51,993 bases of DNA from a virus (taxonomy: Duplodnaviria; Heunggongvirae; Uroviricota; Caudoviricetes), in IMG/VR virus record IMGVR_UViG_2850796239_000012, one strand, 5' to 3'. Position 1 is the first letter of the stretch, and each line of letters begins with the position of its first letter. Both the position numbers and the translations under genes were made by a program. This document shows positions 34,018-35,090 of the stretch, one piece after another. Under the pieces are notes generated by a model. The model was given only the letters and a program-made list of their open reading frames with translations. It was not told the DNA's origin and did not search any database.

Positions 34018-34055
34018 GGAAAGAAAAAAGGCCATCAGCAAAACTCTGATGGCCT
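34018..34055 (-). terminator. Intrinsic terminator upstream of the lysis genes (late strand)
   Basis: On the minus strand: AGGCCATCAG-AGTTTTG-CTGATGGCCT (10-bp stem) followed by TTTTTTCTTTCC. Confidence 0.5.
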
Positions 34056-34099
34056 GAATCACCTTTACCAATATTGTATGAAAAAACACGCACGTCTAA

Positions 34100-34230
34100 T
34101 TGACAATAATTTTCATTTCCATTAAAAAAGATCGCGTAGCATTCTTAATTCATGAGGAACTTTACCCGCCAGCAATCTGAGTAGCGAAAGCTGTTCATCC
34201 CCAATGTTTTTGCTGGCGGGTCCTTTTTTC
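34100..34230 (+). ncRNA. Candidate small RNA gene (promoter + strong intrinsic terminator, no ORF)
   Basis: TTGACA (34100-34105), 17-bp spacer, TAAAAA (34123-34128); perfect 12-bp stem ACCCGCCAGCAA / TTGCTGGCGGGT (34164-34175 / 34210-34221) followed by CCTTTTTTC; the longest ORF in between is 10 codons. Confidence 0.35.
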
Positions 34231-34667
34231 TACGGTCCTCCTCCCCGGAGGGGGCATTTCATTATTTTTCTAATCATTACTGGTGAGAAGGCGGAAGAAA
34301 AAGCCAGTTCTTCGCCCCTAAATAACAGCATGATTCCAGTCCATGCAAAATCTGATTTCCAGCTCACACATACCGAGCACTGTACAAAAAACCGCCAGCC
34401 AAGGCAGTTAAGAGTGTGTTCCCGGGGTTTGCTTAGAATATTTTGTAAGTTGTCCGAAGAGATATTTACAACACCAGAATGATGCATTATCAGTCCCCTG
34501 CCAGAGGTTCACTACGTAACCTGACCGACAATGCACCATTCTGGTGCTGAAAAAAGAGCACTGGAACTGCAACAAAACAACATCACAGAACAGGAGATGG
34601 TAAGGAGTCAGACATTCCCACACAATATTGTGTCAGTGCAAATAACAACCTTCGTCTCAAATCTCGC

Positions 34668-34742
34668 TGGAGCGGGCAGCGGGAATCGAACCCGCATCAT
34701 CAGCTTGGAAGGCTGAGGTAATAGCCATTATACGATGCCCGC
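34668..34742 (-). tRNA. tRNA-Gly (anticodon UCC)
   Basis: Hand-folded cloverleaf: GCGGGCA acceptor stem, anticodon loop CUUCCAA, T-loop GGTTCGATTCC, 3' CCA encoded; closely resembles E. coli glyT as recalled. Confidence 0.8.
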
Positions 34743-34745
34743 ATA

Positions 34746-34821
34746 TGGTGCCGACTACCGGAATCGAACTGGTGACCTACTGATTACAAGTCAGTTGCTC
34801 TGCCTGCTGAGCTAAGTCGGC
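34746..34821 (-). tRNA. tRNA-Thr (anticodon UGU)
   Basis: GCCGACT acceptor stem pairing with AGTCGGC, anticodon loop CUUGUAA, T-arm CCAGTTCGATTCCGG, CCA encoded; resembles E. coli thrU as recalled. Confidence 0.8.
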
Positions 34822-34823
34822 GC

Positions 34824-34900
34824 TGGCCCACCACCGAGGACTCGAACCTCGCACCGTCAACTTAGAAGGTTGATGCTCTATCCGGATGAGCTAGTGGTGG
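34824..34900 (-). tRNA. tRNA-Arg (anticodon UCU)
   Basis: Acceptor stem CCACCAC/GTGGTGG (unusual C1-G72), anticodon stem TCAAC/GTTGA with loop CUUCUAA, T-arm CGAGGTTCGAGTCCTCG, CCA encoded. Confidence 0.7.
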
Positions 34901-34901
34901 T

Positions 34902-34978
34902 TGGTGGCCCTTGCTGGACTTGAACCAGCGACCTGGCGATTATGAGTCGCTCGCTCTGACCAACTGAGCTAAAGGGCC
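34902..34978 (-). tRNA. tRNA with CAU anticodon, body resembling minor tRNA-Ile (ileX/ileZ type)
   Basis: GGCCCTT acceptor stem, anticodon loop CUCAUAA, T-arm GCTGGTTCAAGTCCAGC, CCA encoded; Ile(LAU) versus Met cannot be settled from sequence alone. Confidence 0.7.
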
Positions 34979-35063
34979 GGAGGCAGAATAATAACCATAT
35001 GTCATCACATCTGCAAACTCATCTGACCACCAGCACGTTTAACGTCCTGTGCCGTTTTTCAGG

Positions 35064-35090
35064 TATAAAAAACCCCGCATAAAGCGGGCT
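35064..35090 (-). terminator. tR'-like intrinsic terminator downstream of the Q-like gene
   Basis: On the minus strand: GCCCGC-TTTAT-GCGGG followed by GTTTTTTAT; ~80 bp downstream of the Q-like stop and just upstream of the tRNA cluster. Confidence 0.4.

Follow-up and report, generated by a model that had tools for sequence, protein, structure and literature searches.

The tRNA genes of the cassette

The window examined here, the whole 51 993 nt of the IMG/VR virus record IMGVR_UViG_2850796239_000012 (Caudoviricetes), carries a lambda-like prophage that lies between pgl and a HAD-hydrolase gene in the chromosome of a Shigella or enteroinvasive Escherichia coli strain, and the subject of this study is a cassette of tRNA genes in the late region of that prophage. 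Exactly four tRNA genes were found in the 52 kb window using ARAGORN, and they lie head to tail, all on the minus strand. In the order of that strand, the region consists of a YbcO-family gene, a gene for a Q-like late antiterminator, a terminator, the four tRNA genes, a gap of approximately 610 nt, a second terminator and the lysis cassette. The tRNA genes, numbered below as slots 1 to 4, are:

34978-34902, minus strand: tRNA of the Ile2 type, anticodon CAU, ileX/ileZ-like (ARAGORN, as CAT; Rfam RF00005, 70.5 bits)
34900-34824, minus strand: tRNA-Arg, anticodon UCU, argN-type scaffold with C1-G72 and discriminator G73 (ARAGORN; RF00005, 56.4 bits)
34821-34746, minus strand: tRNA-Thr, anticodon UGU, thrU-like (ARAGORN; RF00005, 69.8 bits)
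34742-34668, minus strand: tRNA-Gly, anticodon UCC, identical to glyT (ARAGORN; RF00005, 64.9 bits)

The gathering score of RF00005 is 29, and the E-values for the four genes range from 1e-9 to 1e-13. The genes are separated by spacers of 1, 2 and 3 nt and each encodes its own CCA end. The acceptor stems are paired at 7/7 positions in all four, including the Arg tRNA, where the C1-G72 pair was confirmed and all seven acceptor pairs are canonical, and the other cloverleaf stems are also intact. A preliminary description of this DNA, made by reading the sequence, had placed four tRNA genes with CAU, UCU, UGU and UCC anticodons on the late strand between the Q-like gene and the lysis genes, packed head to tail with spacers of 1-3 nt, and both programs bear this out.

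When a permissive Rfam search was run over positions 33700-35400, only sub-threshold matches, to miRNA precursor families and to the Plastid-ycf2 and YrlA families, were returned in addition, and none of these was accepted as a family assignment. The Plastid-ycf2 matches correspond to the antisense strand of the tRNA genes, and the miRNA-type matches arise because of a long hairpin that is described below.

Identity of the individual tRNAs

The gene in slot 1 has a CAU anticodon and is easily mis-annotated as Met. ARAGORN names it 'Met', and the NCBI annotation pipeline PGAP names the same gene tRNA-Ile in a prophage that is 99.9 % identical to this one (L001). It shares 74/77 positions with ileZ of the Shiga toxin (Stx) phages and 69/77 with ileX of E. 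coli K-12, but only 54/78 with metT and metU. Its acceptor stem contains C4-G69 and C5-G68, like that of ileX, whereas U4-A69 and A5-U68 occupy these positions in metT. In work attributed to Ikeuchi et al. (2005), TilS reportedly discriminates by these two acceptor pairs. Because of the match to ileX and ileZ and these acceptor pairs, which go beyond the label given by ARAGORN, the CAU tRNA is of the Ile2 (ileX/ileY/ileZ) type, as the preliminary description had proposed; formation of lysidine and charging with Ile are predicted.

The tRNA-Arg in slot 2 is closest to argN of the Stx phages (64/77), and is more distant from argU (58/79) and argO (46/77). The argN anticodon is UCG in both Sakai Sp5 and Stx2a_F349, and that of the tRNA in the window is UCU, so that the latter is an argN-type body carrying the anticodon of argO. 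The C1-G72 pair, which had been singled out as unusual, is indeed present, but argN of the Stx phages also starts with C1-G72 and hence this is a trait of the argN scaffold lineage and not a quirk of the copy in the window. This tRNA shares the anticodon loop CUUCUAA with argU, and in its D-loop, AUCCGGAUA, G18-G19 are followed immediately by A20. The main identity elements recognized by ArgRS are C35 and A20. Having the UCU anticodon, C35 and A20, this tRNA would be equivalent to argU and argO as a reader of AGA and AGG, and its charging is predicted.

The remaining two tRNAs had been said to closely resemble the products of thrU and glyT, and alignment agrees with this. The tRNA-Thr shares 74/76 positions with K-12 thrU, the two differences being U-to-C changes in the D-loop, and the tRNA-Gly is identical to K-12 glyT (75/75). 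As the cassette has none of the DNA that flanks thrU and glyT in the host, the tRNA bodies can only suggest that these genes were captured from the host operon. In each of the four tRNAs, the anticodon loop is the same as in the corresponding host isoacceptor (ileX for Ile2 and argU for Arg).

The cassette is part of a conserved module

Four further features surrounding the tRNA genes were located on the same strand:

35088-35074, minus strand: tR'-like intrinsic terminator, a GC stem followed by GUUUUUUAU (pattern scan; -16.5 kcal/mol, z -4.14)
35016-34988, minus strand: promoter-like element, TTGCAG, a 17 nt spacer and TATTAT (pattern scan)
34549-34469, minus strand: long hairpin at the trailer end of the cassette, stem of approximately 30 bp (-48 kcal/mol, z -7.75)
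34055-34029, minus strand: strong intrinsic terminator before the holin gene, a 10 bp stem with 6 GC pairs followed by UUUUUUCUUU (pattern scan; -17.3 kcal/mol, z -3.96)

The -10 hexamer of the promoter-like element has its last base 9 nt upstream of the 5' end of mature tRNA-Ile2. When eight prophages, including Sakai Sp5, that differ in their Q genes, in spacers and flanks and in their lysis genes were aligned, TTGCA, the 17 nt spacing and TATTAT were invariant, and the sequence of the spacer between the two elements varied. In Sakai Sp5, the primary start site driving the tRNAs has been mapped downstream of tR' (PMC7547250); we have equated this start with the promoter-like element by its stated position rather than by coordinate.

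Neither terminator hairpin was matched in folding energy by any shuffled sequence, and terminator activity is predicted for both. In other prophages, a hairpin with a T-run also occupies the tR' site, with stem and loop sequences that differ. The cassette had been described as bracketed by terminators, and both are present, each with a GC stem and a U-run, but the bracketing is loose, as approximately 610 nt of non-coding DNA lie between tRNA-Gly and the second one. The long hairpin lies within this interval. It is retained in seven cassette variants with compensatory changes at four pairs. It may serve as an RNase III site or a terminator, or mark the boundary of a module.

Similarity among the cassette variants extends from the T-run of tR' (approximately 35075) to just past the trailer hairpin (approximately 34461). 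The tRNA genes belong to a module of approximately 615 bp, the other parts of which are the sigma-70-like promoter, which does not vary, and the trailer hairpin, which is conserved.

Distribution and variants of the cassette

Of 5426 complete E. coli genomes, 603 contained the 311 nt four-slot tRNA block at a threshold of at least 80 % coverage. Nine of these have a block with 100 % identity, in which PGAP lists tRNA-Ile, -Arg, -Thr and -Gly, and the full 1.2 kb region was also found in nine genomes. The locus is therefore already annotated as these four tRNAs in RefSeq genomes with identical sequence and is a known kind of feature, and since the same block carries PGAP annotation in 603/5426 complete genomes the arrangement is not unusual. 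As tRNA genes downstream of Q have already been described for lambdoid phages, it also carries little weight as a discovery. What is mildly new here are the boundaries of the module, the conserved trailer hairpin, the variability of the anticodons in the slots and the presence of three copies in Shigella flexneri. The latter were seen in a scan of one genome per species for the Arg-Thr junction, which detected it three times in S. flexneri, three times in a single E. coli record and nowhere else. In both sets of three, the module is 99 % identical to that in the window, and the flanks differ among the copies within a genome.

Related E. coli prophages carry four different anticodons (UCU, UCG, UUU and UGU) on the argN-type scaffold of slot 2. 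Among the prophages compared, the anticodon is UUU in L008, L010 and L023, UGU in L022 and UCG in L006 and L024, and the UUU and UGU forms have a C, not a U, at position 33. In the prophage of strain 720632 (L021), the thrU-type gene in slot 3 carries UUU. The commonest variant among the matches listed is annotated Ile-Lys-Thr-Gly. In the prophage of an E. coli O121 strain (L009, positions 2946-3020), the glyT copy in slot 4 now has a UAC anticodon and a deletion in the 3' acceptor strand, and this gene, named tRNA-Val by PGAP, is probably a decaying pseudo-tRNA.

Decay of this kind, which is also seen in UMNK88 as a D-stem mismatch with C33, together with the defective state of the prophage in the window, would fit a view in which the genes are non-functional relics, whether pseudo-tRNAs, leftovers of an integration site or the remains of a deleted toxin locus. 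The genes in the window, scoring 56-70 bits with fully paired acceptor stems and CCA ends, do not have the appearance of relics, the block is 100 % identical across nine genomes, the promoter is conserved, and the tRNA genes occupy a central position in the prophage, a long way from its integrase end at 49812-50939. We consider this explanation very improbable indeed.

The variability of the slots bears on a further possibility, that the tRNAs stand in for host tRNAs lost during infection to cleavage by anticodon nucleases or tRNA-targeting toxins. A tRNA with UUU is tRNA-Lys, a known target of anticodon nucleases (PrrC, PARIS), and related prophages have UUU, UGU or UCG in slot 2 and UUU in a thrU-type slot 3; the body of the Arg tRNA, strongly diverged from host argU (58/79) and with the unusual C1-G72 pair, could also be accommodated. 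However, a nuclease recognizing the loop would cut the tRNAs of the cassette and those of the host equally, as all four anticodon loops are host-like, the Gly tRNA is that of glyT and the Thr tRNA is nearly that of thrU. No nuclease acting on these four species is known here, and the four anticodons fit the pattern of rare codons described below exactly. A role in counter-defence is thus quite unlikely.

Codon use and the proposed function

A comparison of codon usage had been proposed in the preliminary description and gave a positive result. The 40 prophage coding sequences (CDS) in the window were compared with 42 annotated K-12 CDS over the 59 synonymous codons. In the prophage, AUA makes up 15.9 % of Ile codons (4.2 % in K-12; 3.8 fold), AGA 9.3 % of Arg codons (2.3 %; 4.1 fold), AGG 7.8 % of Arg codons (1.3 %; 6.2 fold), GGA 16.8 % of Gly codons (7.8 %; 2.2 fold) and ACA 20.9 % of Thr codons (10.2 %; 2.1 fold). 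These five are among the seven most over-used of the 59, and each of the enrichments was also found in the late genes (Fisher p values from 6e-5 to 4e-12). In E. coli, AUA, AGA/AGG, ACA and GGA are read by minor isoacceptors with one or two genes each.

The bias is more extreme in an ipaH-like open reading frame (ORF) elsewhere in the window, in which approximately 43 % of Arg codons are AGA and 32 % of Ile codons are AUA, and AGA plus AGG reach approximately 52 and AUA approximately 24 per 1000 codons, compared to approximately 2 and 2.4 in the K-12 genes; these figures are approximate because they derive from a 461 aa ORF, the last third of which is probably out of frame.

The reading that we favour, to which we assign a probability of roughly 75 %, is that the four tRNA genes form a functional cassette that supplements scarce tRNAs and occupies a 'moron' slot of this defective, lambda-like prophage, after Q/tR' and before the lysis genes. 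Rare-codon reasoning has been published for the tRNAs found downstream of Q in SfI, Sf6, P21 and the Stx phages, and the Thr(UGU) tRNA of SfI has been linked to over-use of ACA (PMC3636060).

The analysis shows the genes and what they are homologous to, a promoter-like element that is conserved, two terminators and a bias in codon use, and from these we infer how the cassette would be transcribed, processed, modified and charged, and what any benefit would be. Most likely, it would be transcribed as a single precursor from its own sigma-70 promoter just downstream of tR' and would, with a promoter of its own, be active in the lysogen too, and additional transcription by Q-modified polymerase reading through tR' would be expected during lytic growth. 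Processing of the precursor at the 1-3 nt spacers would fall to RNase P and 3' exonucleases. Host TilS would convert C34 of the Ile2 tRNA to lysidine, enabling it to read AUA, while the Arg-UCU tRNA would read AGA and AGG, Thr-UGU would read ACA and Gly-UCC would read GGA. A larger supply of these four scarce tRNAs would then make the translation of A/T-rich phage genes, and of cargo such as ipaH, more efficient. The cassette provides four extra genes for the scarcest decoders (AUA, AGA, ACA and GGA), and a genome of S. flexneri can hold as many as twelve. In strains that carry the cassette, the added tRNAs could affect how A/T-rich virulence genes and heterologous genes are expressed.

Several points weigh against a role in supplementation. 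An excess of rare A-ending codons is expected in any foreign DNA of lower GC content, and the codon match is compatible with supplementation but is no proof of it. The K-12 baseline consists of 42 genes only. CGG and CGA are also over-used, and the cassette includes no tRNA for them. A consensus scan of the interval between Q and tR' did not locate pR'; in Sp5 the pR' start lies within the 3' end of Q (PMC7547250), and by analogy that of the prophage in the window may also lie within the Q gene. Finally, since the prophage is defective, a benefit to the translation of phage late genes cannot be what maintains the cassette here.

The conclusion that the prophage is defective was reached because of three lesions, which were defined by comparison with a near-identical prophage of E. 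coli FDAARGOS_944:

36480-37809: 1330 bp insertion of an IS3-family (IS2-like) insertion sequence (IS) in a DUF1367 gene
22133-23048: 916 bp insertion in the tail region
31726: 1 bp deletion that splits the gene lying upstream of the one for the large terminase

The state of the prophage raises the question of whether the cassette is kept for the host, being constitutive and multiplied and boosting the translation of horizontally acquired A/T-rich virulence genes, such as ipaH and the type III secretion genes of the invasion plasmid. This would explain why the cassette survives intact in decaying prophages, as it does in this IS-disrupted and frameshifted one and in three rearranged prophage remnants in S. 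flexneri. The promoter is downstream of tR' and hence independent of Q, and the ipaH-like ORF is rich in AGA plus AGG and in AUA relative to K-12 genes. Against this, E. coli pathotypes that do not have the invasion plasmid commonly carry members of the same cassette family, the intact condition of the cassette may simply reflect recent decay of the prophages, and even the ipaH copy in the window is no longer one reading frame but two. Maintenance for the benefit of the host is thus possible but doubtful. An extended form of the proposal would have the module of approximately 615 bp (35075-34461) moving between unrelated lambdoid late regions, with slots that can be re-programmed in related prophages (UCU, UCG, UUU or UGU on one scaffold), and, in Shigella and enteroinvasive E. 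coli, increasing in copy number and remaining undamaged inside dead prophages because the bacterium benefits from better translation of A/T-rich virulence genes. Taken as a whole, this is rather unlikely and is offered as speculation.

Flanking genes and other features of the prophage

The genes and the non-coding block on either side of the cassette are:

35722-35168, minus strand: Q-like late antiterminator gene, 184 aa (Pfam DUF1133, 355.8 bits; PHROG 753, E 1e-79)
34368-34056, minus strand: non-coding block before the holin gene, a mosaic piece of its own (approximately 85 % identity to unannotated E. coli DNA)
33988-32809, minus strand: P21-type lysis cassette (holin 33988-33773, lysozyme 33773-33276, Rz 33291-32809)

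PHROG 753 is described as 'anti-termination protein Q-like', and the Q-like protein also matches Phage_antitermQ (28.4 bits; cut-off 26) and, weakly, the structure of Q21 (6p18; E 4e-4). In the 99.9 % identical prophage L001, the gene is annotated as encoding a DUF1133 protein. Family membership and the position of the gene before a terminator and the lysis genes indicate a putative lambdoid Q antiterminator. The lysis proteins match Phage_holin_2_1 (P21 holin S), Phage_lysozyme and Phage_lysis in Pfam, and the names given by PGAP in L001 are class II holin, RrrD and lysis protein.

For the gap of 610 nt between tRNA-Gly and the second terminator, none of the ORFs had a PHROG match, and the small ORFs found there on both strands (61-92 aa) were for this reason rejected as genes or as the remnant of a toxin gene, in agreement with the earlier statement that toxin genes are absent. 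PGAP has placed no annotation in this gap in L001, and in a comparison with a phage collection it did not correspond to any known phage gene region, only two weak matches (71-74 % identity) being returned. DNA approximately 85 % identical to the block at 34368-34056 is found in 1368 E. coli genomes, on chromosomes (e.g. that of Nissle 1917) and on plasmids. In two examples that were inspected, it adjoins remnants of Rz/Rz1, and the plasmid copy is near iss. This block has a strong hairpin with a 12 bp stem.

More generally, the early region of the prophage is Rac-like and the lysis region is P21-like. The possibility that the tRNA genes mark the attachment site was rejected, as the integrase gene and the junction with host DNA are approximately 15 kb away. 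Other features of the window are:

2849-4674, plus strand: ipaH-like gene in two overlapping frames (LRR_TTSS 2849-4234, NEL E3-ligase domain 3808-4674)
approximately 4999-7638: IS66-family element, after the ipaH-like gene
38903-39589, minus strand: gene for QueH (epoxyqueuosine reductase), in the early/nin region
38670-38845, 44612-44800 and 49416-49594: Rfam matches to small RNAs typical of a Rac-like early region

The ipaH-like gene is probably a frameshifted pseudogene. The small RNAs comprise a sok antitoxin RNA beside a hok-like ORF, isrK with the C4 antisense RNA upstream of a gene for a Rha/Ash-type regulator, and the RalA antitoxin RNA near recombination genes. QueH represents a second tRNA-related function in the prophage, namely queuosine modification of tRNAs with GUN anticodons.

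Comparison with known tRNA clusters

The tRNA clusters of T4- and T5-like virulent phages are tightly packed, with spacers of a few nt, and are thought to offset differences in codon usage between phage and host. The cassette in the window shares the tight packing, the polycistronic arrangement and the short spacers, but the prophage is temperate and defective, and the cassette has four genes only, two of which are copies of host genes. Phages P21, Sf6, SfI, ST64T and PS3 have tRNA genes in the same slot downstream of Q, and the holin in the window is of the P21 type. According to their descriptions, however, these phages are set apart by having only one or two tRNAs (Asn-GUU, Thr-UGU) in place of Ile2-Arg-Thr-Gly. 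The thrU-tyrU-glyT-thrT operon of K-12 resembles the second half of the cassette in that glyT (75/75) and thrU (74/76) are matched and thrU precedes glyT in both, but tyrU, the 116 nt spacer, thrT and the host flanks are missing from the cassette, where the Thr and Gly genes are 3 nt apart.

The closest comparison is with the ileZ-argN-argO cluster of the Stx phages (933W, Sakai Sp5 and Stx2a_F349), to which a resemblance had been pointed out in the preliminary description. In both cases the genes lie head to tail after Q/tR' and before the downstream late genes, with an ileZ-type gene first and an argN-type gene second. They differ in that slot 2 has UCU rather than UCG, argO is replaced by the thrU-like and glyT-identical genes, stx does not follow downstream, and the Q family (DUF1133) and the P21-type lysis cassette are not those of the Stx phages. 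Because argO, which would be third, and stx, which would be immediately downstream, are absent, the cassette falls outside the full definition of the Stx cluster. The resemblance nevertheless reflects true homology where it concerns the -35 and -10 elements of the promoter, slot 1 (74/77) and slot 2 (64/77, including C1-G72).

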